Positions 14,978 to 28,964 of a DNA stretch of 37,272 nucleotides are shown piece after piece. Below the pieces are notes generated by a model. That model made no database searches. It saw only the letters and a list, made by a program, of their open reading frames with translations, and was not told the DNA's origin. A program made the position numbers and the translations under genes. Position 1 is the stretch's first letter. Every line of letters starts with the position of its first letter. This DNA is from Desulfobacteraceae bacterium (GTDB taxonomy: Bacteria > Desulfobacterota > DSM-4660 > Desulfatiglandales > B25-G16). The stretch spans positions 1-37,272 of the forward strand of contig JAUWZC010000001.1 in the NCBI GenBank assembly GCA_030615565.1. Direction: 5' to 3'.

Positions 14978-15334
14978 GTGGGAAAAGTACCCAAAATAAT
15001 TATAGTAATAGTAATAAGCCTTTTTCTTGTAGCCTTCTTTTTAGGTATATACATAACAATTGATGAAAAAATACCCAACAATGCAGTAGTTGTTGTAACA
15101 TTGGAAGATAAACTCTGTCATTCTATTCACTTTGATTATATTTGCGTTGCTCGCAAAACAGCCAAGACAATGGTCTGTTCTGAGGCAAAGGAGAAGGGTT
15201 TCAAATTAAACTCCCATTGTCAAAATCTTGGCTATTTTAGGGGTAACAGACTTTTTCTTTACCAATATATCCTCTCAAAGTTTGGGATACAATATAACAG
15301 CCGCTGGGATATGAACGGCAACTGGCTATGGTGA
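14978..15334 (+). CDS. Hypothetical single-pass membrane protein with 4 Cys in the extracytoplasmic part
   Basis: 118-aa ORF with a GTG start, an N-terminal TM helix IIIVIVISLFLVAFFLGIYI and no recognisable family. The RBS is weak and a 330-nt AT-rich spacer precedes it. Confidence 0.4.
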   Translation: MGKVPKIIIVIVISLFLVAFFLGIYITIDEKIPNNAVVVVTLEDKLCHSIHFDYICVARKTAKTMVCSEAKEKGFKLNSHCQNLGYFRGNRLFLYQYILSKFGIQYNSRWDMNGNWLW

Positions 15335-17934: not shown

Positions 17935-17962
17935 AGTCAAAAAATTTCCTTTTACTACCTGA

Positions 17963-18046
17963 TTATTCCTTCTTAAGATCCTCTATGTCCTTTTTAAGGC
18001 CTTTGACCTCTTCCTTTAGCTCACTTGTATCAAGTTCTTCATCAAA
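17963..18046 (-). repeat. Shared C-terminal tail module, copy 1 (inverted relative to 28878-28964)
   Basis: It encodes FDEELDTSELKEEVKGLKKDIEDLKKE*. By hand alignment, 64 of 81 aligned nt and 19 of 27 residues are identical to the tail of the 28698-28964 ORF. Confidence 0.8.
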
Positions 18047-19558
18047 TTTCTCTATATCTTTTTTTCGAATATAGGTAGCAATGTTTTTTCTTAATAAGGC
18101 ATATTCATCATTCATGCTTTTTAGCTTTTCCTTGGCATCTATTGCCTCTCGCTCTAATTCCTTCATTCTCAATGCAAGATCGGTTATATCTATATTGACA
18201 ACTACACATTCCTTGGATTTCCCATCGATGCTCTGAACAGGATAGACCCTTGCCAGAACATGCACGGGTTCCCCCTGAGCCGAATAATATTTCCATTCTT
18301 CTCCATTAAATGATTCCCCTTTAAAGACCCTTATTATTGTTTCTCTAAATGGTCGTCTTGTAGATTTTGAAACAAAGGTCAAAGGGTTGTTTCCAATCAT
18401 CTTAGAGGAAGGGTAACCAAAATTTTCTTCACACGCCTTATTCCAGAAGCTAATCTTACCTTTAGAGTCTATCTTATAAATAGCATTCGATGGCGATCCA
18501 ACTGCCTGGCCACGATTATCATATACGCTATAAGTTTCCCCTTGCACATTAGTAACATCCTGCATTATTTGTATAGCCCCTTTAATTGATCCATTGATGT
18601 CAAGAATCGGGGCAACTGCTACAATTGCCTGAATACCCTCTTTTATGTCAGGAAGAGGAACACCCACCTCAAAGAACCCGCTATCTGTCTTTGATACGAT
18701 TGAGCCGGAAAATTTATCTATTATAGTATCTGGGTCCTCTATCATAATATCAGCTAGACTCCGTTGCCTATCAACGCATAAAGAGGCAGGAACCTTCTTT
18801 CCAATTATTTCCTCTGTAGGTACACCTGTCATCTGCTGGCATGCACGATTCCACTGAATCACCCTATGTTCTACATCCACTACAAAGGTAGGGAGAGGAG
18901 ATTTCTCGACAAGAGTGTCAATGTAGTTCTTTGACTCTACAAGGGTCCTGGATCTGACCTGTTCTCTGTCGAGGACATCAGTCTTTTCCTTTTCATACAT
19001 GAAGGCAATTAAAAGAATAACCAAAAGGCCCGATAAATATGCGCCCAGGGAATAAATAGGTGAAATATCAGGGGGTATGAGATTTGGAAACTTGTAACCG
19101 CTCCTAAATAGATAAACTGCAACACCCGTTTCAAAAAATATTAAAGTCCCCCAGATAGTTCCCCATAGATATCCTGTAATGAAAACAGCCATAAGGATAA
19201 GGACAGCATTCCATATCCAGGATAAAAGGATTAAACCTCCTTCGCTCATTGCCCCAGTATTCCACCTAGTAATCAAAAAAGTAGCCCATAGGACAAAAAA
19301 GGCATAATTTCCAGCTACAATAAGATTTTTGGTCAGCCTTAGAAGAATCAGGGCCGAGATCGCTAATATACCGGCACCAATGGTAGTATAAAAGAGAAGA
19401 TCTGCCTTGATGTTAAAATAAAACAGGCCAAGGAAAAGGGAAAGAAGAATAAGGATACATAGAAATGTATTGAGGGATTTAAATTTCGTTATTCTTTCTA
19501 AATCCGGAGATTTTATTCCACACGTAATAAAATTGTTAAATAGAGATTTGAGGCTCAT
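17963..19558 (-). CDS. Polytopic membrane protein with two PAS domains and a C-terminal coiled coil, no recognisable output domain
   Basis: 531-aa ORF. About 6-7 hydrophobic helices occupy residues 25-190. Two PAS-like repeats follow (..VIQWNRACQQMTGVPTEEIIGK.. and ..ISFWNKACEENFGYPSSKMIGN..). A heptad-rich tail ends in DTSELKEEVKGLKKDIEDLKKE. There are no HisKA/HATPase, GGDEF, EAL or MCP motifs. Confidence 0.75.
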   Translation of the reverse strand: MSLKSLFNNFITCGIKSPDLERITKFKSLNTFLCILILLSLFLGLFYFNIKADLLFYTTIGAGILAISALILLRLTKNLIVAGNYAFFVLWATFLITRWNTGAMSEGGLILLSWIWNAVLILMAVFITGYLWGTIWGTLIFFETGVAVYLFRSGYKFPNLIPPDISPIYSLGAYLSGLLVILLIAFMYEKEKTDVLDREQVRSRTLVESKNYIDTLVEKSPLPTFVVDVEHRVIQWNRACQQMTGVPTEEIIGKKVPASLCVDRQRSLADIMIEDPDTIIDKFSGSIVSKTDSGFFEVGVPLPDIKEGIQAIVAVAPILDINGSIKGAIQIMQDVTNVQGETYSVYDNRGQAVGSPSNAIYKIDSKGKISFWNKACEENFGYPSSKMIGNNPLTFVSKSTRRPFRETIIRVFKGESFNGEEWKYYSAQGEPVHVLARVYPVQSIDGKSKECVVVNIDITDLALRMKELEREAIDAKEKLKSMNDEYALLRKNIATYIRKKDIEKFDEELDTSELKEEVKGLKKDIEDLKKE

Positions 19559-19701
19559 AATTGCTACTAAATAGGCTTGCTGATGAAAAGAGTAAAAGGG
19601 TTAATAATGAGATTCTCAAGAGACATTCCTTCATCATTAGGAACATAAACAGAAATATAACAATTTAACTTACAAATAATAAGGTAAAAACGAAAATAGT
19701 A

Positions 19702-20145
19702 TTAAAATATCGTAATCTTCCCTTCACGGTCGACAATTCCATTTATTTCCTTAACCCCGTCTTTAAAAAGGTTGAAAGAGGCCGAGATGGTAACTTGACA
19801 AAAGCCATCAGCCGTTGCTGGAAAGGTTTGAATTTGAAAGTTGAGATTGTGACCGACGGGAATAGGGACATTGAGTGCATCTTTGACATCTTGTATCTCT
19901 TGCTTGGTAGGAGGATCATTCTTAAATATATCTATACTTGTACCATCTTCTGGAAAAAATTTTTCATTCTCCAGAAAATACATGATCTCGGCATCAAGAA
20001 TCCTTTTTAGCATAAGAGCAGCCTCAGATCCATAGGCCCTCTGTTGATATATATTTAAGATTGGCATTGCTGTGGCACCTAAAATTCCCAAAATGGCAAC
20101 CACAACCATTAACTCAATAAGCGTAAAACCAGCATGTCTTCTCAT
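19702..20145 (-). CDS. Type IV pilin / pseudopilin-like protein with class III (prepilin) signal
   Basis: 147-aa ORF. MRRHAG|FTLIELMVVVAILGILGATAMP has Gly at -1, Phe at +1 and Glu at +5, followed by a hydrophobic alpha1-N helix. An AGGAG RBS lies inside the 3' end of the upstream gene. Confidence 0.8.
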   Translation of the reverse strand: MRRHAGFTLIELMVVVAILGILGATAMPILNIYQQRAYGSEAALMLKRILDAEIMYFLENEKFFPEDGTSIDIFKNDPPTKQEIQDVKDALNVPIPVGHNLNFQIQTFPATADGFCQVTISASFNLFKDGVKEINGIVDREGKITIF

Positions 20146-20150
20146 TTCAT

Positions 20151-20747
20151 TTAGGCTCCTCCGCTCGATGGCCGGGTATACTCAATACCTTTTGGTGATA
20201 GAATAACATTCATCTCCCCTGCCTTAGGATTTGCCACAGACAAGCGGTAGCCTGCCTCGGGATCCCTCTGATAAGATAATTTCTCCAAATGAAAAAGTTC
20301 ATCCTTTCTTAATGATAGATATTTAGGAACAAGATTGGATAGTTTTTCAGGGTATTTATCTCCTTCATAATGTGCATAACGCTTGATAGCCCCATCAACC
20401 ATAAACAATAGTACCCTTCCCTTTTTAGCAAAATCAATCTTTCTGGGAGGTGCAGGCTGACCACCAAAGATAATTACTCCCCACATCACCAGGATCAACA
20501 TAGATGAAATAATGACAAAATACTGAAAGGGACCCTTTTTTTTCTTTTTTTTATCTTCCTTCTCTGTAAGCTTTCCCTGCTTGTCTTTTATAGATGTACC
20601 GACTTCAGAGACAGAGTGAAGCATGGCACACTGAAAACAGTAATATTCGCCAGATCTCGACTCTTCACCGCATTCCTTGCACAGTGGCGCATTACAACTT
20701 GCACAAAAAAATTCTGCTTCCCTCTTAGGGTGATATTTACACTTCAT
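20151..20747 (-). CDS. Zinc-finger (B-box-like) / single TM / GspG-like periplasmic domain protein
   Basis: 198-aa ORF. The N-terminus CKYHPKREAEFFCASCNAPLCKEC..CFQC is followed by a KKKKKK linker and a TM helix FQYFVIISSMLILVMWGVIIFGG. The C-terminal AIKRYAHYEGDKYPEKLSNLVPKYLS resembles the T2SS major-pseudopilin globular domain. Confidence 0.6.
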   Translation of the reverse strand: MKCKYHPKREAEFFCASCNAPLCKECGEESRSGEYYCFQCAMLHSVSEVGTSIKDKQGKLTEKEDKKKKKKGPFQYFVIISSMLILVMWGVIIFGGQPAPPRKIDFAKKGRVLLFMVDGAIKRYAHYEGDKYPEKLSNLVPKYLSLRKDELFHLEKLSYQRDPEAGYRLSVANPKAGEMNVILSPKGIEYTRPSSGGA

Positions 20748-20863
20748 GAAAATTCCTCTTCTAAATAAGGCATATTTTTTATAGCTATTATTTTAAGGTA
20801 AAGGTAAGAAAAGATAAAGGAATAGTCAAGAAATAAATCTTTTTAGGTATGTTGAGCAAATTT

Positions 20864-22789
20864 TTAACTTTCAGGCTTCAAGCTATTTCCACAATAAGGA
20901 CAGGCAACCCAATCTGGCTGTACTATCCGCTTGCAAGAAGTACAGGTAGGAATTATAGGTTTTTTGCAATAGGGGCAGTCCTTGAAATCTAAGCTAACGG
21001 TTTTTCCACAATGAGGGCAAATGGTGGTCAATTCCTCCTTTTCGTGTACCGCTTTCAGTACCTCTTCTATGGTTGTTATTCCCATTTCTATCTTTTTCAT
21101 TCCACTAATCCCGAGGGTGGTCATCCCCATTGCCATGGCTGCTTCCCTCAAAGTATCGGCCGTTGCAGAGGACTGAATGAGTTCTCTTATTTTAGGACCA
21201 ATAATCATCATCTCTTCAATAGCCGTTCGCCCTCTGAAACCAGTATTATTGCAATTAGGGCACCCTGCCCCCCTGTAGAATTTAAAGGGAAGATCATTTT
21301 GATCCAGATTTAGTCTGGCCAGGGAATCTTGAGCAGGCAAATACTCCTCCCTACAATCCTCACATATGGTTCTTACCAGCCGTTGTGCAACAATTCCAAC
21401 TACAGAAGAAGCAATAAGATATGGCGGGATACCTATATCTATGAGACGAGTAACTGCCGCAGGAGCATCGTTTGTATGGAGGGTTGAAAGAACCAGATGT
21501 CCAGTCATGGAGGCCTGAACAGCTATCTCAGCCGTCTCTTCATCTCTTATCTCACCTATCATAATCACATTGGGATCCTGTCTTAAAATCGAGCGCAGAA
21601 TAAAGGGAAATGAAAGGCCAACCTTCTCGTTTATCTGTACCTGGTTGACACCAGACAACTCATATTCTACAGGATCCTCAACAGAAATGATATTTACCTC
21701 TTCCGACTTTATCTCCCGCATACATGCATAAAGGGTTGAGGTTTTTCCACTTCCTGTAGGGCCTGTAATCAAAACCATGCCCTGGGGACGATGGATAAAA
21801 TTCGTTATTATTTTCAGATTCTTCTGGCTTAATCCAAGTTGATCCACTGAGAGAAATGCTTCTTCTTTGTTCAAGATTCTTATAACAGCCTTTTCACCAT
21901 AATAAGTAGGAAGTGTCGATACTCTCAGATCTACAGATACATTTTTTGCCTTTACCTTTATCCTCCCATCCTGGGGAAGCCTCCTCTCTGCTATATTCAA
22001 ACCCGCCAATACCTTTATGCGCGAGATAATAATAGGTTGAGTCCATTTCGGGAGCTTGATAGAATCCTTTAGTACACCATCAATGCGATTTCTAACTCTT
22101 ACATGATTTTCCTGTGCCTCAATATGAACATCACTTGATCCACTCTTAATAGCATTCCTGATTATAAGATCAACCATTTTTATAAAAGGTGAATCCTTGA
22201 AAGATTCAAAATCCGCTTCTTCATCCACTTTCTTTTCTTCTTCGGGAAGAAACTCCATGAGGCCAGTATCTTCCACAAATTCATCAGCAACGTCCCTAAT
22301 TGTTCTTTCCGGATGGTAGTGTCTTTGAAGCTTGTCTATTATCTGGCTTCGTGTAGAAATAGCCGGCTGGATATTGTAACCAGTTATAAACTGGAGATCT
22401 TTCATTATATTCAGATCAAGAGGATCAGCCATGGCAACATCAAGTATATTATTTTTCATAGATAGAGGAACACATACAAACTTCTGACAAACCTCCTCAG
22501 GTAGACAGTCAATAACTTCATTTTTAATAGAATAGTCTATAAGATCAATGAAGGGAATCTTAAGTTGCATAGCCAGAGCAAAGGCCATTTCCTCTTCTGA
22601 AATGATCTTCATATCAATTAGGGCCTCGCCTAATCTTTTCCCAGTTTCCTTCTGAACCTCTAAAGCATCCTTTAGTTTATCAATAGTTAAAAGACCTGAT
22701 TCTATTAATAATTCTCCTAATTTACGTCGGGAGACAAAATTATCCTTATGTGTTTTATTCTTGGTTTGAATTGAGGCAGTATCTGCCAT
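20864..22789 (-). CDS. GspE/PilB-family type IV filament assembly ATPase with MshEN-type N-domain and C-terminal double zinc ribbon
   Basis: 641-aa ORF with Walker A GPTGSGKTS, Walker B VIMIGEIRD, His box LSTLHTND and the tetracysteine CEDC..CPNC. The N-terminus reads KLGELLIESGLLTIDKLKDALEVQ-KETGK-RLGEALIDMKIISEEEMAFALAMQ. An extra tail reads CPHC..CPYC..CTSC..CPYC. Confidence 0.92.
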   Translation of the reverse strand: MADTASIQTKNKTHKDNFVSRRKLGELLIESGLLTIDKLKDALEVQKETGKRLGEALIDMKIISEEEMAFALAMQLKIPFIDLIDYSIKNEVIDCLPEEVCQKFVCVPLSMKNNILDVAMADPLDLNIMKDLQFITGYNIQPAISTRSQIIDKLQRHYHPERTIRDVADEFVEDTGLMEFLPEEEKKVDEEADFESFKDSPFIKMVDLIIRNAIKSGSSDVHIEAQENHVRVRNRIDGVLKDSIKLPKWTQPIIISRIKVLAGLNIAERRLPQDGRIKVKAKNVSVDLRVSTLPTYYGEKAVIRILNKEEAFLSVDQLGLSQKNLKIITNFIHRPQGMVLITGPTGSGKTSTLYACMREIKSEEVNIISVEDPVEYELSGVNQVQINEKVGLSFPFILRSILRQDPNVIMIGEIRDEETAEIAVQASMTGHLVLSTLHTNDAPAAVTRLIDIGIPPYLIASSVVGIVAQRLVRTICEDCREEYLPAQDSLARLNLDQNDLPFKFYRGAGCPNCNNTGFRGRTAIEEMMIIGPKIRELIQSSATADTLREAAMAMGMTTLGISGMKKIEMGITTIEEVLKAVHEKEELTTICPHCGKTVSLDFKDCPYCKKPIIPTCTSCKRIVQPDWVACPYCGNSLKPES

Positions 22790-22909
22790 AGATCGTAGCC
22801 TTATTTGTATTTTAACCTTTAAAAAGCAATCTATCCAATTTTGTATATCATCGTTTAAACATTATTTCAACTCAATAAAAAATAATATAATCAATACCAA
22901 GGCTTTTCT

Positions 22910-22938
22910 TTGACATATAGGTATTAATTTGATATAAA
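22910..22938 (+). promoter_or_regulatory. Candidate sigma70-type promoter for the CHASE2-kinase operon
   Basis: TTGACA (22910-22915), a 17-nt spacer, then TATAAA (22933-22938), in the 267-nt AT-rich divergent spacer about 120 nt upstream of the ATG at 23057. Confidence 0.45.
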
Positions 22939-23056
22939 ATTCGATTAATTTTAAGTTGCTTAAATTATTTTTAAAAAATATATTAAGTTAGATAAATAGA
23001 ATTATGGTTACAGATTATCAACTAAAATATCCAAAATAATAATAACATTTAATTTC

Positions 23057-25573
23057 ATGAACGAAAGCGACAAAAAAACAAATTTGCTTATAGGCTCACT
23101 CATAGTGGTCATTTGTATTTACCTGTCTTTTATGAGCTTTCCCTTTTTTGAGTCACTTGAAAAGGTAATTTACGAGATCGAAATGCGGCTCGATACACCC
23201 CGTAACCCTGGTGAAAGCAAAGTAGCTATTGTAAATATTGATGATAAAAGTATCAATAAACTTGGCAAATGGCCCTGGCCAAGGCATATCATAGCTGAGA
23301 TGATCAAAATCTTAAAAAGTAATGGGGCAAAGCTTATTGGCATAGAGATGGTCTTTAGCGAAAAAGAACAAAATCTAGGCATCGAAGAGATAAAAAAACT
23401 TTACTCTAAAATCCTGAATCGAGAAAAAGTTTACACCACAGGAGAAAAACACACATGGATACTTGCTGAGTTGGAGGAGATTGAAAAACGCCTGGATAAC
23501 GATAAAGTCCTATCACAAACAGTGAAAAATACTGGAAATATAATCCTTCCAGTTATTGGCGAATTTGGAAAATATAGAACTGAATTAATAATTGCACCTG
23601 AATCATTCCTGAATATCAGCACATTGAAAAAAGATAGCATTAATATTGAAGACCAAACACCTGTCAAAGAATTAACTACTCCGTTTAATGAGCTATCAAA
23701 AAGCAGTCATGCTCTAGGACACACAAACCTATCCCCTAATAAACTAAGGGTGGGCCAAGTCCATATACCTTTTATCAATTATAGAGGACATATAATACCC
23801 TCTATGCCTTTACGTCTTGCCCTTGACTACCTAAATAAGCATCCTGAACAGGTAATAATTAAAGGGTCTGGAATTAAACTCGGAGAAGAAATTATTCCAA
23901 CCAGCAAGGGGGAAATGCTCATCAAATTTAAAGGTGGAAGACGATCCTTTCCATATTATTCATTTATAGATATCTTAAATGTTAAAAAGGTCCCAGCTGT
24001 ATTTGATGGCAAAATTGTCCTCATTGGCTTTACAGCCAAAGGAAGTGCTTCGGTTAACACACCGGTAGACCCTTATATGCCACAGGTAGAATTTATGGCC
24101 AACGTAATCGATGATTTTTTACATGGACGTTTTCTTAAACGCTCAAATGTAATGCTATATCTGGAGGTCTTTATCTTAGTGCTACTTGGACTGGCATCCT
24201 CATTCTTCCAATCCCGTTTCAGTTATTTAAACCGAACCGCATTCACAGCCGGGTTGATCTTTCTTGTCTTTTTAACCAGTGCCACCTTTTTTATATCATT
24301 TGATATATGGTTTAAAAGCATTTATATCCTTCTCTCTCTGACAACTATCTATGTTGTAATTATGGGAAAAGACTTTCTATATATTCACAAGACCGGTTTA
24401 TCAAAGGAGGCTATAGAAACTAACCGAATGCTTGGTATTAGCCTTCAAAGCCAGGGGTTGCTTGATCTGGCCTTTGAAAAATTCAGAAAATGTCCTCTCG
24501 ACGATGAACTGAGGGATGTTATCTACAATCTTGGGCTTGATTACGAACGAAAGAGAATGATTAATAAGGCTATTTCTATCTATGAATACATTAACAAGAA
24601 AGACAAAGGTTTTAGGGACTTAACTGAACGTATACCAAAATTAAAAAAGGTGATCAGTTCTCTACCATTAGGTGCCTATCAAGGAAAAAAGGAAGATAAA
24701 ATAGTTGTTTCAGATGACCTAGAAGTTAAGCCCACTGTCGGAAGATACGAAATACTAATGGAGTTGGGTCGGGGGGCAATGGGTACTGTTTACAAAGGGA
24801 GAGATCCTAAAATCAATCGCCTCTTGGCAATTAAGACAATCCGTTTCTCAGATGAATTTGAAGATGATCAGCTAAAGGAGATAAAAGAGCGCTTCTTTAC
24901 AGAGGCCGAGTTAGCAGGAAAACTCTCACACCCCGGAATCGTTGCCATACACGATATAGGAGAAGACTATGATCTTACTTATATGGCCATGGAATTCTTA
25001 GACGGGGAGGACCTAGAGAAATACTGTAAGAAAGGATCGCTCCTTCCAATTAGAAAACTACTAGATATTATAGCTGAAACAGCAGATGCCTTAGAATATG
25101 CACACAACAATGGTGTAATTCACAGGGATATAAAACCAGCAAATATAATGCTATTAAAAAATGGCAGAGTAAAGGTAACTGATTTTGGGATAGCAAAGTC
25201 AATGTCTGCCTCAAAAACCAGAAGTGGAATAATACTCGGTACACCTAACTATATGGCACCAGAACAGATTATGGGTCGCCAGATAGACGCTCGATCGGAT
25301 ATATTCTCTCTGGGTGTTGTGTTCTTTCAGCTCCTAACAGGAGATTTGCCATTCCGTGGGGACAACCTGAACAGCCTTTTTTACAAAGTTACCCAAGTTA
25401 AGCATCCCTCACCTAGTAAAATAAATCCAAAGGTTATAAAACCGTGTGAGCAGATACTTGATAAAGCATTAGCTAAAAACCCGGATCATAGATTTCAGAA
25501 GGCTAGTGATCTTGCTAAGTATTTAAGAATTTTGGCTAATAAAATTGATACCCTGAGGGTGAAAAAAAAATAA
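23057..25573 (+). CDS. CHASE2 sensor - TM - TPR-like - Hanks-type Ser/Thr protein kinase
   Basis: 838-aa ORF. After an N-terminal TM helix comes the CHASE2 hallmark VAIVNIDDKSINKLGKWPWPRH, then three TM helices around residues 365-440. The kinase motifs are GRGAMGTVYKG, AIK, HRDIKPANIML, DFGIAK and GTPNYMAPE. Confidence 0.88.
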   Translation: MNESDKKTNLLIGSLIVVICIYLSFMSFPFFESLEKVIYEIEMRLDTPRNPGESKVAIVNIDDKSINKLGKWPWPRHIIAEMIKILKSNGAKLIGIEMVFSEKEQNLGIEEIKKLYSKILNREKVYTTGEKHTWILAELEEIEKRLDNDKVLSQTVKNTGNIILPVIGEFGKYRTELIIAPESFLNISTLKKDSINIEDQTPVKELTTPFNELSKSSHALGHTNLSPNKLRVGQVHIPFINYRGHIIPSMPLRLALDYLNKHPEQVIIKGSGIKLGEEIIPTSKGEMLIKFKGGRRSFPYYSFIDILNVKKVPAVFDGKIVLIGFTAKGSASVNTPVDPYMPQVEFMANVIDDFLHGRFLKRSNVMLYLEVFILVLLGLASSFFQSRFSYLNRTAFTAGLIFLVFLTSATFFISFDIWFKSIYILLSLTTIYVVIMGKDFLYIHKTGLSKEAIETNRMLGISLQSQGLLDLAFEKFRKCPLDDELRDVIYNLGLDYERKRMINKAISIYEYINKKDKGFRDLTERIPKLKKVISSLPLGAYQGKKEDKIVVSDDLEVKPTVGRYEILMELGRGAMGTVYKGRDPKINRLLAIKTIRFSDEFEDDQLKEIKERFFTEAELAGKLSHPGIVAIHDIGEDYDLTYMAMEFLDGEDLEKYCKKGSLLPIRKLLDIIAETADALEYAHNNGVIHRDIKPANIMLLKNGRVKVTDFGIAKSMSASKTRSGIILGTPNYMAPEQIMGRQIDARSDIFSLGVVFFQLLTGDLPFRGDNLNSLFYKVTQVKHPSPSKINPKVIKPCEQILDKALAKNPDHRFQKASDLAKYLRILANKIDTLRVKKK

Positions 25574-25608
25574 AGAAAATAATAGTTGTGAAGAATTAAG
25601 GAGAAAAA

Positions 25609-26436
25609 TTGAAAATCACAGCTGCTGGACTTTCTGATGTTGGCCTTAAGAGGGAAAGTAACGAGGATTACCTTACGATAGACAATTCTACTGGATTATA
25701 TATAGTGGCTGATGGTATGGGAGGGCATCAGGCTGGAGAGGTTGCCAGCAGGGTTGCCGTACAGATAATCCAGAAAAACGTTAACAATTGGATAACTAAG
25801 AACAGTCCTATGGTTGACTTATTCGACTTTCCGGACATGACCCTGAGCCAAAGAGGTAATTATATATCAAGTAGCATAAAATTAGCTAACAGGGTTATTT
25901 ATGAAATGTCTCAAGAATATACAGAATACAAGGGCATGGGGACAACGATTGTAATCTTGGCAATAATGCCCTCTACTATAATTGCAGCTAACGTGGGCGA
26001 TAGCAGGATCTATCTTATAAGAGGAGATACAATGGAACCTCTTTCTAAGGAACATAGCATGGTAGCCGAACAGTTAGAGATGGGTCTGATATCTGAGGAA
26101 GAAGCAAAAATTTCTCCTTTAAGACATATACTTACGAGGAATCTGGGTTCAACAGGTATAGTTGATGCAGATGTTTTCGAAATTGAGCACATAAATAATG
26201 ACCGTTTTTTACTCTGCACTGATGGGCTGACAGATCTTGTATCAGACGATGAGATACTAAGCATTATCAAAAATGGAAATGACCCTGATTATATCTGTCA
26301 GCAACTCGTTTCTGAAGCTAATAAGAGGGGTGGTTATGATAATATCACTGTCTCTTTGATATGTTTAAATGAACAAAATGATGAAAAGCAGGGAATCATA
26401 AGAAGATTTGGAACCTTTTTAAAAAATAAAAAATGA
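25609..26436 (+). CDS. PP2C-family Ser/Thr protein phosphatase (second copy)
   Basis: 275-aa ORF with a TTG start 5 nt after AAGGAG. Motifs are NEDYL, ADGMGGHQAGEVAS, GMGTTIV, GDSRIYLIR, CTDGLTDLV and GGYDNITVSLI. Confidence 0.88.
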   Translation: MKITAAGLSDVGLKRESNEDYLTIDNSTGLYIVADGMGGHQAGEVASRVAVQIIQKNVNNWITKNSPMVDLFDFPDMTLSQRGNYISSSIKLANRVIYEMSQEYTEYKGMGTTIVILAIMPSTIIAANVGDSRIYLIRGDTMEPLSKEHSMVAEQLEMGLISEEEAKISPLRHILTRNLGSTGIVDADVFEIEHINNDRFLLCTDGLTDLVSDDEILSIIKNGNDPDYICQQLVSEANKRGGYDNITVSLICLNEQNDEKQGIIRRFGTFLKNKK

Positions 26437-26477
26437 GCTTATGTTTTTCTTATTAACCACAAAAAGGGGCATATGTT

Positions 26478-27200
26478 ATGGCACGGGTTATATTAGTATT
26501 TAATAAAAAAGTGATTAAAGAGTATCCTTTTGCCAAAGATAGCATGACCATCGGGCGGGATGAAGTAAATGATATTGTAATCGATAATCTGGCGGTATCC
26601 GGTCACCATGCTAGGATAGACAAAACCGGAGATACCTATATCCTTACCGACTTACAAAGTACAAACGGAACCTTTGTTAATGATAAGAAAATTACCTCTC
26701 ATAAATTGCTGCATAAGGATAAAGTAATTATTGGCAAACATCTCCTTTTCTTTGCTATGTCAAAGCAGGAACAAGCCAAAGCTAAAGATGGAGAGCTTGA
26801 TAAGACCATGATCCTTGACACAGCCAGGCAAAAGGAGCTATTAGAGAAACAGGCTGAAAAAAAGGCCATGGCTGTACCCGCTCAAAAAGGTAAACTTGGT
26901 ATCATAACCTTCATCGACGGTTCCGGTGAAGGCGAAATTCAACTGACGAAAAAACTAACCAAGATAGGCAAAGCTGAAACGTCGGAAATAAGGCTCGGTG
27001 GTGTGTTCATGCCTCCTACAGCAGCTACTATCAGTCGCAGACCAAATGGTTATGCTATTTCATCCACTGGTGGGAGAACAAAGGTAAAAGTAAATGATCA
27101 GGTGATAAAAGAAAGCCATTACCTGAAGGATTTTGATACAATTGAAATAGGATCATACAAATTCCAATTCTATAGCCAGGATAGTAAAGATGCAAAATAA
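26478..27200 (+). CDS. Double FHA-domain protein (canonical N-terminal FHA plus degenerate C-terminal FHA-like domain)
   Basis: 240-aa ORF. The N-terminal domain has MTIGRDEVNDIVIDNLAVSGHHARI..LQSTNGTFVND. The C-terminal part reads TKIGKAETSEIRL..ATISRRPNGYAISS..KVKVNDQVI. Confidence 0.8.
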   Translation: MARVILVFNKKVIKEYPFAKDSMTIGRDEVNDIVIDNLAVSGHHARIDKTGDTYILTDLQSTNGTFVNDKKITSHKLLHKDKVIIGKHLLFFAMSKQEQAKAKDGELDKTMILDTARQKELLEKQAEKKAMAVPAQKGKLGIITFIDGSGEGEIQLTKKLTKIGKAETSEIRLGGVFMPPTAATISRRPNGYAISSTGGRTKVKVNDQVIKESHYLKDFDTIEIGSYKFQFYSQDSKDAK

Positions 27201-28164
27201 AATAAGTAGAAAAAATAGAGTAAAAATAAATATACTTTATTTAATTATTGCTATCCTTCTTTCTTCCCCTTTTTATTTAGAGGCATCTGAAAGGCAATCT
27301 ATCAAGGTTAAAGCAGATGACTCGATAAGTTTCCTTAGCTTCAAAATTTATGGCAGATTCCACCCTGAAATGCTTAAACAATTCTCAAAAATTAATCCCC
27401 ATGTTAAAGATTGGAATAATCTTACTGTAGGAACAGAAATAAAATTTCTAACCGAAAAAGAAATGAATAGCATTATTCCAGAGCAAAAAAAAGAAGTGAT
27501 AATTATAACCTTTTTGAAACATCCAGTAAAAATTAAAAAGGGTGCCAAAGGTCCTCATAAAAGAGCTCTATTAAATATGATCCTTGATTCAAAAGATTGT
27601 ATAGAGGTAAGAAGTGGTGGCAGCGTAGAATTAATGATGAGCTATGGAAGGGTCATCAGGCTAAATGAGGGCTCAACCTTAAAAATTGGTACCTTAAAGA
27701 GGGATGAGAAAAAAAAATCAGTTGTAGGAAAATTCAAACTCTTTCTTGGAAGGCTCTGGGGAAAGGTATTAAAGGCTCGATCTTATAGAAAAAAAGAGAT
27801 GTACGTGTCCACGCCAACACTCGTAGCTGGTGTCAGAGGGACAGCATATGACCTAAAATTAAAGCGTGACCAGTCCACAATCATCAAGGTTTTTGAAGGA
27901 GAGGTTGAAATATATAATCCTTTACAAAAAATGCCCGAATCCGGAGTTATTAAGGATTTTAAAAAACCACATAGGGTTAAAGGCCCCCACAGAATCACCG
28001 AAAAAGAATGGAATGAGATCCTTCTCAGGCAATACCAACAAGTAATTGTTACAAAAGAGGGCATTAGCGAACCTATTATATTCGACTACGAAAAGGAAAG
28101 GCAAACTGAATGGATAAAATGGAATGAAGAGAGGGATCTAAGATTAAGTGAAAGGGAGACCTAA
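27190..28164 (+). CDS. Exported LysM-like / FecR-domain protein
   Basis: 324-aa ORF overlapping the FHA gene stop by 11 nt. It has a signal or anchor helix ILYLIIAILLSSPFYL and a LysM-like segment IKVKADDSISFLSFKIYG..NNLTVGTEIKF. The FecR-like beta region reads IRLNEGSTLKI..VAGVRGTAYDL..VFEGEVEIYN. Confidence 0.65.
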   Translation: MQNKISRKNRVKINILYLIIAILLSSPFYLEASERQSIKVKADDSISFLSFKIYGRFHPEMLKQFSKINPHVKDWNNLTVGTEIKFLTEKEMNSIIPEQKKEVIIITFLKHPVKIKKGAKGPHKRALLNMILDSKDCIEVRSGGSVELMMSYGRVIRLNEGSTLKIGTLKRDEKKKSVVGKFKLFLGRLWGKVLKARSYRKKEMYVSTPTLVAGVRGTAYDLKLKRDQSTIIKVFEGEVEIYNPLQKMPESGVIKDFKKPHRVKGPHRITEKEWNEILLRQYQQVIVTKEGISEPIIFDYEKERQTEWIKWNEERDLRLSERET

Positions 28165-28176
28165 TAAAGGCTAACT

Positions 28177-28422
28177 TTACTTCCCTGGCACACCTAAAGA
28201 TTTAAGTCTTTTATCTGTCATTTCCTTTAATCTTGTTTCTATCTGGTGTTCTGAAAAGGTCTTCTGACAGTGTGTGCATTGGTAGATTTCTTCTACGACC
28301 TCATCATATATAAGATTATCTGAAAAATTTACTCTTCGGAACTGGGTAGAAAAATTATAGATCTGAATAAAATTTTTATTCTTACATTTATCACACAAAA
28401 AATAATCCTTGATAGTATTCAT
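28177..28422 (-). CDS. Small 4-Cys zinc-ribbon protein, unknown function
   Basis: The 81-aa form starts at MNTIKDY, with a GGGGG stretch a few nt upstream as a possible RBS. It has two CxxC pairs (CDKC and CTHC) about 45 residues apart. The track's TTG start at 28434 is the alternative. Confidence 0.5.
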   Translation of the reverse strand: MNTIKDYFLCDKCKNKNFIQIYNFSTQFRRVNFSDNLIYDEVVEEIYQCTHCQKTFSEHQIETRLKEMTDKRLKSLGVPGK

Positions 28423-28697
28423 TAGTGCCCCCAAAAAAGCATCTCTCTCTTGCGATCAGGTAAATTCTCTTACCCAATTTAGTCTACTTTGTCAAAGAAA
28501 ATATGGTTAATGGTCTTCTCTAATTGACAATTATAGAAAAAATTTATCTTTATTTGTGTTTATTGAATTAACTTTAGCTCACTTTGAAATTTAGGGATTA
28601 AAAATATAATTATCTTCTTGAATGATGATTTTTCTTGTGTTAAAAGGAACAAAATTAACATCCTTTTAATAATAAGACAAAGGTTAAGGAGGGAAAA

Positions 28698-28964
28698 ATG
28701 GCGGCTTTAATTGGTGGCTTGGTATCTTTGGTTTTGGGGGTTATAGGAATTATTATCTTTTGGGGATATTTTGTTAAGGCCTTAGCAGCTGGAATACCTG
28801 CTCTACTTATCTTGGGTGGTGCCTTAGCCACATATCTTGGCATTGAAGAATGGAAAGATAAAAAAAGTGCCCAGAATTTCACCGAAGAACCTGATACAAG
28901 CAAGCTAAAGGAAGAGGTAGAAAGTCTGAAAAAAGAGGTAGAGGATCTTAAAAAAGAAGAATAA
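28698..28964 (+). CDS. Small two-TM hairpin membrane protein with charged coiled-coil tail
   Basis: 88-aa ORF with a GGAGGG RBS (28689-28694). It has two Gly/Ala-rich helices (LIGGLVSLVLGVIGIIIFWGYF and AAGIPALLILGGALATYLGI) and the tail EEPDTSKLKEEVESLKKEVEDLKKEE. Confidence 0.6.
   Translation: MAALIGGLVSLVLGVIGIIIFWGYFVKALAAGIPALLILGGALATYLGIEEWKDKKSAQNFTEEPDTSKLKEEVESLKKEVEDLKKEE
28878..28964 (+). repeat. Shared C-terminal tail module, copy 2 (inverted relative to 17963-18046)
   Basis: It encodes FTEEPDTSKLKEEVESLKKEVEDLKKEE*. It contains the 15-nt identical run GCTAAAGGAAGAGGT and a second run, GAAGAAC-(C/T)-TGATACAAG, identical to copy 1 except at that one position. Confidence 0.8.

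Follow-up and report, generated by a model that had tools for sequence, protein, structure and literature searches.

This locus raises the question of why two otherwise unrelated genes, which point away from each other at the two ends of an 11-kb block of signalling genes, should share almost the same 3' end. The window (the whole stretch of DNA that was analysed: 37,272 nt from a Desulfobacteraceae bacterium, GenBank assembly GCA_030615565.1, contig JAUWZC010000001.1, positions 1 to 37,272 of the forward strand) has a GC content of 39% and holds a signalling neighbourhood flanked by the housekeeping genes dnaX, lysA, dapB, secA, argJ, ndk and ETF-QO; the closest public loci come from metagenome-assembled genomes of Desulfatiglandales and Desulfobacteraceae. 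The left gene encodes a PAS sensor (531 aa; positions 17963-19558, minus strand), and the right gene encodes a small MamI-like membrane protein with two transmembrane (TM) segments (88 aa; positions 28698-28964, plus strand). The answer that we favour, with a probability of roughly 0.7, is that the inverted repeat arises as a side effect of protein coding: both genes would end in an old coiled-coil tail module, which would have been added to the PAS sensor and which may serve in oligomerisation or docking.

The inverted repeat and the tail that it encodes

The longest inverted repeat found by the repeat search in the window has its arms at positions 17962-18064 and 28860-28962 (103 nt, 78/103 nt matching, 76% complementary) and is about threefold longer than the runner-up (35 nt). 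The left arm (minus strand) consists of the last 33 codons of the PAS gene and its stop codon (KKDIEKFDEELDTSELKEEVKGLKKDIEDLKKE and stop), and the right arm (plus strand) runs through the final 34 codons of the small gene into the first base of the stop (KKSAQNFTEEPDTSKLKEEVESLKKEVEDLKKEE). Each arm is a 3' coding end, and the similarity of the arms ends at the stop codons; the PAS protein terminates with FDEELDTSELKEEVKGLKKDIEDLKKE and the small protein with FTEEPDTSKLKEEVESLKKEVEDLKKEE. An inverted repeat encoding one C-terminal tail in two genes, with outward-pointing 3' ends and with the remainder of the two proteins unrelated, had been described in an earlier reading of the sequence without database searches (hereafter, the sequence-only reading), and all of this was confirmed, the last point with BLASTP. 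Its count of 64/81 identical nucleotides was also right; the number of identical residues in the tails is 20/27 instead of 19/27, and the longest exact run between the arms (AGCTAAAGGAAGAGGT) was measured as 16 nt instead of 15 nt.

With blastn, the repeat scored 85.6 bits, against 31.2 ± 2.3 bits (maximum 38) in 40 first-order Markov surrogates of the window. The ungapped BLOSUM62 score between the two tails was 101, against 27.9 ± 5.2 (maximum 60) for 20,000 composition-preserving shuffles; the K/E-rich zipper part by itself scored 73, against 24.3 ± 4.8 for shuffled sequences; and pairwise BLASTP with compositional adjustment gave 45.1 bits (E = 3e-11). The sequence-only reading had held that the special link between the two genes would fall away if alignment statistics were no better than for shuffled K/E-rich sequence, and the match survives this comparison.

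The distribution of the tail was examined with a hidden Markov model (HMM), the alignment of which included both open reading frames (ORFs) of the window. In the six-frame translation of the window, these two ORFs matched (56.9 and 48.4 bits), the next best score being 3.4 bits, and over about 80 related loci no ORF other than those of the PAS and small proteins reached 12 bits. An exhaustive hmmsearch of 1.84 billion representative proteins gave 262 matches at E <= 0.001, the best 150 of which were inspected; among these, a full-length, single and C-terminal match was found only in P0164 (a PAS protein) and in P0070 and P0343 (members of the small family). The other matches among the best 150 cover the zipper part only and lie in proteins with 2-9 tandem (D/E)VSxLKx heptads. 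On these profile searches, the whole tail is specific to two families, and its repeat unit is generic. The sequence-only reading had also considered a common K/E-rich ending of many unrelated proteins, which does not apply to the whole tail and does apply to the zipper part alone, given its resemblance to the widespread (DVSxLKx)n proteins. These proteins are also what could be said for a chance likeness of two low-complexity endings, since many of them resemble the isolated zipper part. However, none of the 20,000 shuffles scored as high as the observed pair, the two tails have in common both the non-repetitive linker F-x-EEPDTS and the C-terminal position, and the whole tail occurs in two families only; chance was tested with a negative result, and we regard it as practically negligible. 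The two tails are homologous. As a side result of the search, P0241-P0388 include a large and varied group of proteins (100-350 aa) in which (D/E)VSxLKx heptads, such as DVSGLKQ, are repeated 3-10 times in tandem.

The tail (about 30 residues) consists of two parts, the acidic linker or helix-start motif F-x-E-E-P-D-T-S-x and three heptads LKxEVxx. In the small protein, the linker (FTEEPDTSK; positions 28878-28904, plus strand) coincides with a predicted helix break, and the zipper part (LKEEVES LKKEVED LKKEE; positions 28905-28961, plus strand) is near-invariant in 115 of the 120 listed members of the family. In the PAS protein, the linker FDEELDTSE (positions 18020-18046, minus strand) aligns with FTEEPDTSK, and the zipper part (positions 17966-18019, minus strand), assigned from the translation and the heptad conservation, is LKEEVKG LKKDIED LKKE, with L at d, V/I at a, K at e and E/D at g.

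The classic heptad of a parallel leucine zipper places Leu at d and a beta-branched residue at a, with Glu at g and Lys at e. Heptad scoring was performed with those 115 small proteins and 16 PAS tails that matched the zipper pattern. With Leu set as d, position a is Val/Ile/Met, position e is Lys/Arg and position g is Glu/Asp. In the small family (n = 115), the entropy (H) is about 0 at a, e, g and two of the three d positions, the middle d being L77/I38 (H = 0.92); positions b and c vary (0.9-2.0), and of the f positions the first is variable (H = 1.38) and the other two are near-invariant Lys. The intact PAS tails (n = 16) show the same heptad pattern (L; K/R; E/D; V/I/M/L). The features expected of a parallel zipper were found in that three contiguous heptads with hydrophobic a and d are present in both tails, the interface positions are conserved, and the tail of the small protein is helical in the AlphaFold2 monomer. 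The constraint on the module lies at the protein level and follows a coiled-coil pattern. The best matches of the tail profile in the PDB were designed and natural coiled coils, all of them weak (CC-Di 4dzm, CC-pIL 4dzn, 5u59, 3v86, the GpsB C-terminus and the NaChBac C-terminal coiled coil), and a Pfam scan of the isolated tail gave sub-threshold matches to bZIP_1 (E = 0.1-0.4) and similar entries only. Because the charge pattern at e and g is the same in both tails (e = K, g = E/D), homo- and hetero-pairing would be equally compatible with them.

The small protein is a two-TM hairpin protein. Its score against the NCBIfam profile of MamI (NF040963) was 37.7 bits, which does not reach the cutoff of 80; positions 1-66 of the 69 profile positions align with the hairpin and the next ~15 residues, and the zipper falls past the end of the profile. 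Precomputed matches to Pfam PF26391 (MamI) were present on many relatives (as 'MamI (weak)' in L006), and a local Pfam scan of the window protein gave none. No mam genes were found in the window or in the related loci, and the gene lies outside any magnetosome cluster, between the signalling block and ndk / ETF-QO; its neighbours are the zinc-ribbon gene and the genes for FecR, FHA, PP2C and kinase proteins. There are at least 287 relatives (E <= 0.01); the 120 that are listed are 76-91% identical, and nearly all of them end with EEPDTSxLKEEVxSLKKEVEDLKKEE. The most distant relative, P0343, lies on a contig of 587 nt. The AlphaFold2 monomer (52-sequence alignment; mean predicted local distance difference test (pLDDT) score, 81) is helical over residues 2-62 and, after a break at EEPDT (63-67), forms a second, separate helix over 68-87 (pLDDT ~80-85). 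A scan for promoters and terminators around the small gene gave nothing above the shuffled expectation, and no relevant work on MamI homologues with coiled-coil tails, or on homologues outside magnetotactic bacteria, came up in a literature search. An ORF of 82 aa on the antisense strand (positions 28655-28903, minus strand) overlaps the small gene and is probably an artefact, as the complement of a conserved coding frame; in the plus-strand frame, the nonsynonymous distance (dN) is much below the synonymous distance (dS) across genomes.

The PAS sensor consists of an N-terminal multi-pass membrane domain (without a Pfam match), two PAS domains (Pfam matches: PAS, PAS_9 and PAS_4), a coiled-coil stretch and the C-terminal tail; 262 homologues were collected, and the orthologues have 500-534 aa. 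The BLASTP alignment of the two window proteins extends upstream of the tail to ATY(I/L) with a 6-residue gap (NIATYI------RKK against ALATYLGIEEWKDKK; positions 18047-18100, minus strand, against 28815-28877, plus strand). This likeness is probably a coincidence, because PAS orthologues without a tail also conserve NIATYIRKK.

Gain, retention and loss of the tail in the PAS family

Three states were distinguished among the PAS orthologues: those with an intact tail (531-534 aa), those with a degenerate or truncated tail, and those without a tail (~500 aa, ending in YIRKK and 1-4 further residues). In the neighbour-joining tree of the PAS bodies (65 loci, tail excluded), the tail is limited to one clade, in which the linked small gene occurs. 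Within this clade, all members of subclade C carry the tail and none of B1 and B2 do, and in subclade A, which includes the window, it is intact, degenerate or truncated. Tails are absent from all outgroup PAS clades (40-51% identity), as is, within 10 kb, the half of the neighbourhood made up of the PP2C, FHA, zinc-ribbon and small genes. Every inspected member of the small family carries the module; in the PAS family it is a derived feature, patchy in distribution and often lost. We infer that the transfer was from the small gene to the PAS gene.

Loss of the tail can be followed at the nucleotide level. In L009, a CGA-to-TGA nonsense mutation follows FDEGSDTGE, an in-frame KEDVK remnant is left after the stop, and a deletion reaches the convergent cyclase gene (this site lies at ~1900-2000 of the locus; P0125, P0126 and P0199 were noted with it). 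In L005 and L032, the Leu and Ile residues of the heptads are substituted (the tail of L005 reads FDAEPDTSEKKEDLKALKKDKGDRTWE). These degenerate tails have dN/dS >= 1, against ~0.2 for the preceding 103 codons, and the intact PAS tails have dN/dS ~0.1-0.4. Between the window and L003, which are separated by the deep A-C split, dN is 0.14 in the tail, where dS is saturated, and 0.20 in the preceding 103 codons. The intact PAS tails are under long-term purifying selection. Two of these loci deserve a further remark as to gene content: in the close relative L005 (1-1250, 11500-11596), an HD-domain gene replaces the small gene and ndk beside the zinc-ribbon gene and the PAS tail is degenerate, and in L032 the PAS tail decays despite an adjacent small gene, so that the link between small gene and tail is not clean.

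The spacing between YIR and the Phe of the tail is six residues in clades A and C alike, which favours a single origin. Two independent acquisitions, in which clades A and C would each have copied the tail from the neighbouring small gene, cost no more on the neighbour-joining tree than one gain and two losses, and the clade A tail is about as similar to the small-protein tails (17-21/27) as to the PAS tails of clade C1 (17-19/27). However, the junction as well as the spacing (YIR, six residues, F) is the same in both clades; the third a position, which is invariant Val in the 115 small proteins, is often Ile in the PAS tails of both; and losses, having been seen directly in clade A (nonsense mutation with deletion, and neutral decay), are evidently easy. 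On balance, a double acquisition seems rather improbable.

Possible roles of the repeat and of the tail

The sequence-only reading had proposed gene conversion, an inversion site or border of an acquired module, and a portable interaction or sorting tail. Recent or ongoing gene conversion, by which the two 3' ends would be kept alike, could draw on the 16-nt exact run and on a codon identity slightly above expectation where the residues agree (13/20, against 9.07 ± 2.12 from codon usage). However, the window PAS tail matches the small-protein tails of ten other genomes at 61-69/81 nt (69 in L012 and 67 in L013), against 64/81 in its own genome; the other loci with both genes show no clear same-genome excess, the own pair topping its row only in L025 and by 2 nt (52 against 43-50); the two tails of L006 are alike at 46/81 nt only; and the two window copies have a saturated dS of 1.28 with a dN of 0.13. 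Codon identity, the cross-genome nucleotide matrix and dN/dS were all negative, and conversion was rejected as very unlikely. The nucleotide identity is the product of amino-acid conservation at K, E and D codons. The idea that the arms act at the DNA level, either in an inversion of the 11-kb block or as the ends of an acquired module, has only the geometry in its favour, in that the longest inverted repeat of the window lies at the outward-facing ends of the signalling block. Both arms are wholly coding, as described above; the same block is present in the same orientation in L001, L012, L013, L015 and L087, where the PAS protein is tail-less and the left arm is absent; and in all 11 loci with both genes the orientation is the same. 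The conserved neighbourhood passes both arms (PP2C and FHA-GAF-cyclase genes on the left, NDK and ETF-QO genes on the right), the conserved order being SecA-ArgJ-epimerase-o118-PP2C-cyclase, PAS-pilin-B-box-ATPase, kinase-PP2C-FHA-(FecR)-zinc ribbon-small and NDK-ETF-QO; this order is found with the tail present in L004, L006, L024-L026 and L032. Among the ORFs of the block and its surroundings, Pfam scans detected no integrase, invertase or transposase; GC content shows no shift (0.34-0.41 inside, 0.35-0.44 outside), and the synonymous sites are saturated. RecA-dependent exchange usually needs roughly 20-30 nt of exact identity, and the longest exact run falls below this. Neither inversions nor presence/absence polymorphisms with breakpoints at the arms were seen in the related loci. 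We consider an inversion site or module border to be extremely improbable; the repeat has no DNA-level function.

The portable tail, the remaining proposal, is consistent with the heptad constraint, the separate predicted helix, the designed coiled coils among the profile matches and the confinement to two families. The series of events that we propose is as follows. A module of ~30 residues, which is fixed and under strong constraint in the small MamI-like two-TM protein, would have been gained once, possibly twice, at the C-terminus of the PAS sensor encoded ~10 kb away, at about the time when the small gene joined the same signalling neighbourhood in that lineage. The two genes diverging from each other would in this way have come to end in homologous copies of it, and the PAS copy would since have been preserved by purifying selection in some lineages, whereas others would have let it decay or lost it by deletion. 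The tail, which is presumably cytoplasmic in both proteins, may form a leucine-zipper-type coiled coil, probably parallel. This coiled coil would oligomerise the small protein, and a tailed PAS sensor may either self-associate through its tail (as a dimerisation clamp) or dock on the zipper of the small protein. Since the tail of the small protein stays invariant where the PAS tail is gone, its primary role is likely independent of the PAS tail, and would most simply be self-association.

That the main job of the tail is a heterodimeric zipper between the PAS and small proteins is possible, but we consider it doubtful. Both genes belong to one conserved signalling neighbourhood, the PAS tail arose only in the clade with the linked small gene, the same e/g charges would make hetero-pairing electrostatically as favourable as homo-pairing, and L005, where the small gene is missing from its usual place, has a degenerate PAS tail. 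However, the small-protein tail is near-invariant in the five loci with a tail-less PAS protein listed above (L001, L012, L013, L015 and L087), the PAS tail of L032 is degenerate though the small gene is adjacent, that of L003 is intact without an adjacent small gene, and clade C2 shows no compensatory changes. The many PAS orthologues that have lost their tail, against an unchanged tail in the small protein, weaken the heteromeric claim. The linker offers a further candidate: PDTSxL might be a phospho-threonine docking motif (Leu at pT+3) that is written by the CHASE2 Ser/Thr kinase and read by the FHA proteins of the block. FHA domains prefer pTxxL/I; kinase, PP2C and FHA genes are in the neighbourhood, and both window tails have Thr with Leu at +3. 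However, the position is Thr in 90 and Ala in 25 small proteins (n = 115), and in the intact PAS tails outside the close relatives of the window (n = 16) it is Val in 9, Ile in 6 and Thr in 1. Because Thr is not conserved, such phosphorylation is unlikely to explain the constraint common to both families, and we give it little credence.

Several points weigh against the coiled-coil module as we have described it. Three heptads are short for a stable isolated zipper, and the coiled coil is predicted from the sequence pattern and from a monomer model, any partner of the tail being hypothetical. The regular expression pre-selected L, K/R, E/D and V/I at a, d, e and g, and the conservation in the PAS tails (n = 16) is therefore partly circular. 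The restriction to two families refers to the best 150 of the 262 significant representatives. L003, a complete genome (CP070673.1), has the best-conserved PAS tail and no small gene within 10 kb. The PAS tail of clade C2 has diverged (FQEEMVVRELRDEINNLKKEIADLKNA) and the small-protein tail of the same genome is unchanged, with no co-variation visible. Finally, parsimony is equal for one gain with at least two losses and for two gains (in A and C).

We put forward, tentatively, that the zipper could be a modular docking tag: the MamI-like protein would oligomerise into a membrane platform, the PAS sensor would have captured a copy of the zipper to plug into it, and repeated loss would uncouple the sensor. 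The setting is a neighbourhood of Ser/Thr-kinase, FHA, cyclase and MshE-ATPase genes in uncultured Desulfatiglandales / Desulfobacteraceae. If this were true, membrane signalling complexes would be rewired in nature by the exchange of a 30-residue coiled-coil tail between neighbouring genes. If the tails do pair, natural sharing of a tag would couple a sensor to a small membrane scaffold, and the tail-less and decayed variants would be built-in controls; as it stands, the case is one of ordinary domain sharing. In either event, protein-level constraint on a short coiled-coil module, composed mostly of residues with two-codon families, can alone yield a striking inverted repeat in DNA, and a false lead towards mobility or inversion is removed. 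The analysis also defines a compact and very conserved C-terminal tail (F-x-EEPDTS and three LKxEVxx heptads), specific to a widespread MamI-like small protein of uncultured sulfate-reducer-related lineages outside magnetosome clusters and to one PAS clade.

Neighbouring genes and related systems

The block itself contains one Ser/Thr kinase and one FHA protein; counting the PP2C and FHA-GAF-cyclase genes immediately outside the left arm brings the neighbourhood to two PP2C phosphatases and two FHA proteins. The constant companions of the PAS gene are a prepilin-type gene, a B-box zinc-finger membrane protein gene, a GspE/MshE-type ATPase gene (MshEN domain and C-terminal double zinc ribbon) and a divergent CHASE2 Ser/Thr kinase gene (positions 19702-22789, minus strand, and 23057-25573, plus strand). 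This five-gene core is kept in most clades examined, and the PP2C-FHA-FecR-zinc-ribbon-small-gene half occurs only in the tail-bearing super-clade. An ORF of 118 aa (positions 14978-15334, plus strand; an N-terminal TM segment, no Pfam match) is kept with 49-85% identity beside the PP2C/cyclase genes in almost all related loci, distant outgroup clades included, and appears to be a core, unnamed member of the neighbourhood. At the left end of the window (positions 35-613), two tRNA-Ser genes (cga and gga) are followed by an 82-nt direct repeat (102-183 and 427-508) with a GC-rich hairpin, and a 47-nt repeat is present in three copies (237-283, 301-347 and 567-613).

Among known systems, invertible segments bounded by inverted repeats and composite mobile elements likewise have two inverted copies flanking a multi-gene block; here, however, a recombinase is absent, the arms are coding and conserved at the amino-acid level only, and the block is found without one arm. 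The likeness to MamI, a magnetosome membrane protein, lies in the two-TM hairpin, which aligns to most of the profile, whereas the small protein scores far under the equivalog cutoff, is encoded outside a magnetosome cluster and carries its zipper beyond the end of the profile. The (D/E)VSxLKx heptad-repeat proteins, which are the top matches of the profile search, have a repeat unit that matches the three heptads of the tail, but they carry 3-10 tandem copies in the middle of the protein, have no F-x-EEPDTS linker and do not end in C-terminal tails. With short parallel leucine zippers (GCN4 / bZIP, CC-Di and E/K coils), the tail has in common Leu at d, Val/Ile at a, Lys at e, Glu at g and a length of ~2.5-3 heptads; the zipper matches in PDB and Pfam are weak and reflect the heptad pattern rather than common descent, and, unlike GCN4/bZIP, the tail has no basic DNA-binding region and is found on membrane proteins after a conserved, acidic, Pro-containing linker. 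The NaChBac-type C-terminal bundle and the GpsB C-terminal domain resemble it in that a short C-terminal helix follows a flexible neck and, in those proteins, holds the subunits together; the tail profile matched 6vwx/6vxo (positions 244-267 of 274) and 6gqa with E = 0.002-0.05 in a PDB-sized search, but these proteins are unrelated to the two families described here, and their tails are tetramers or trimers specific to their own proteins.

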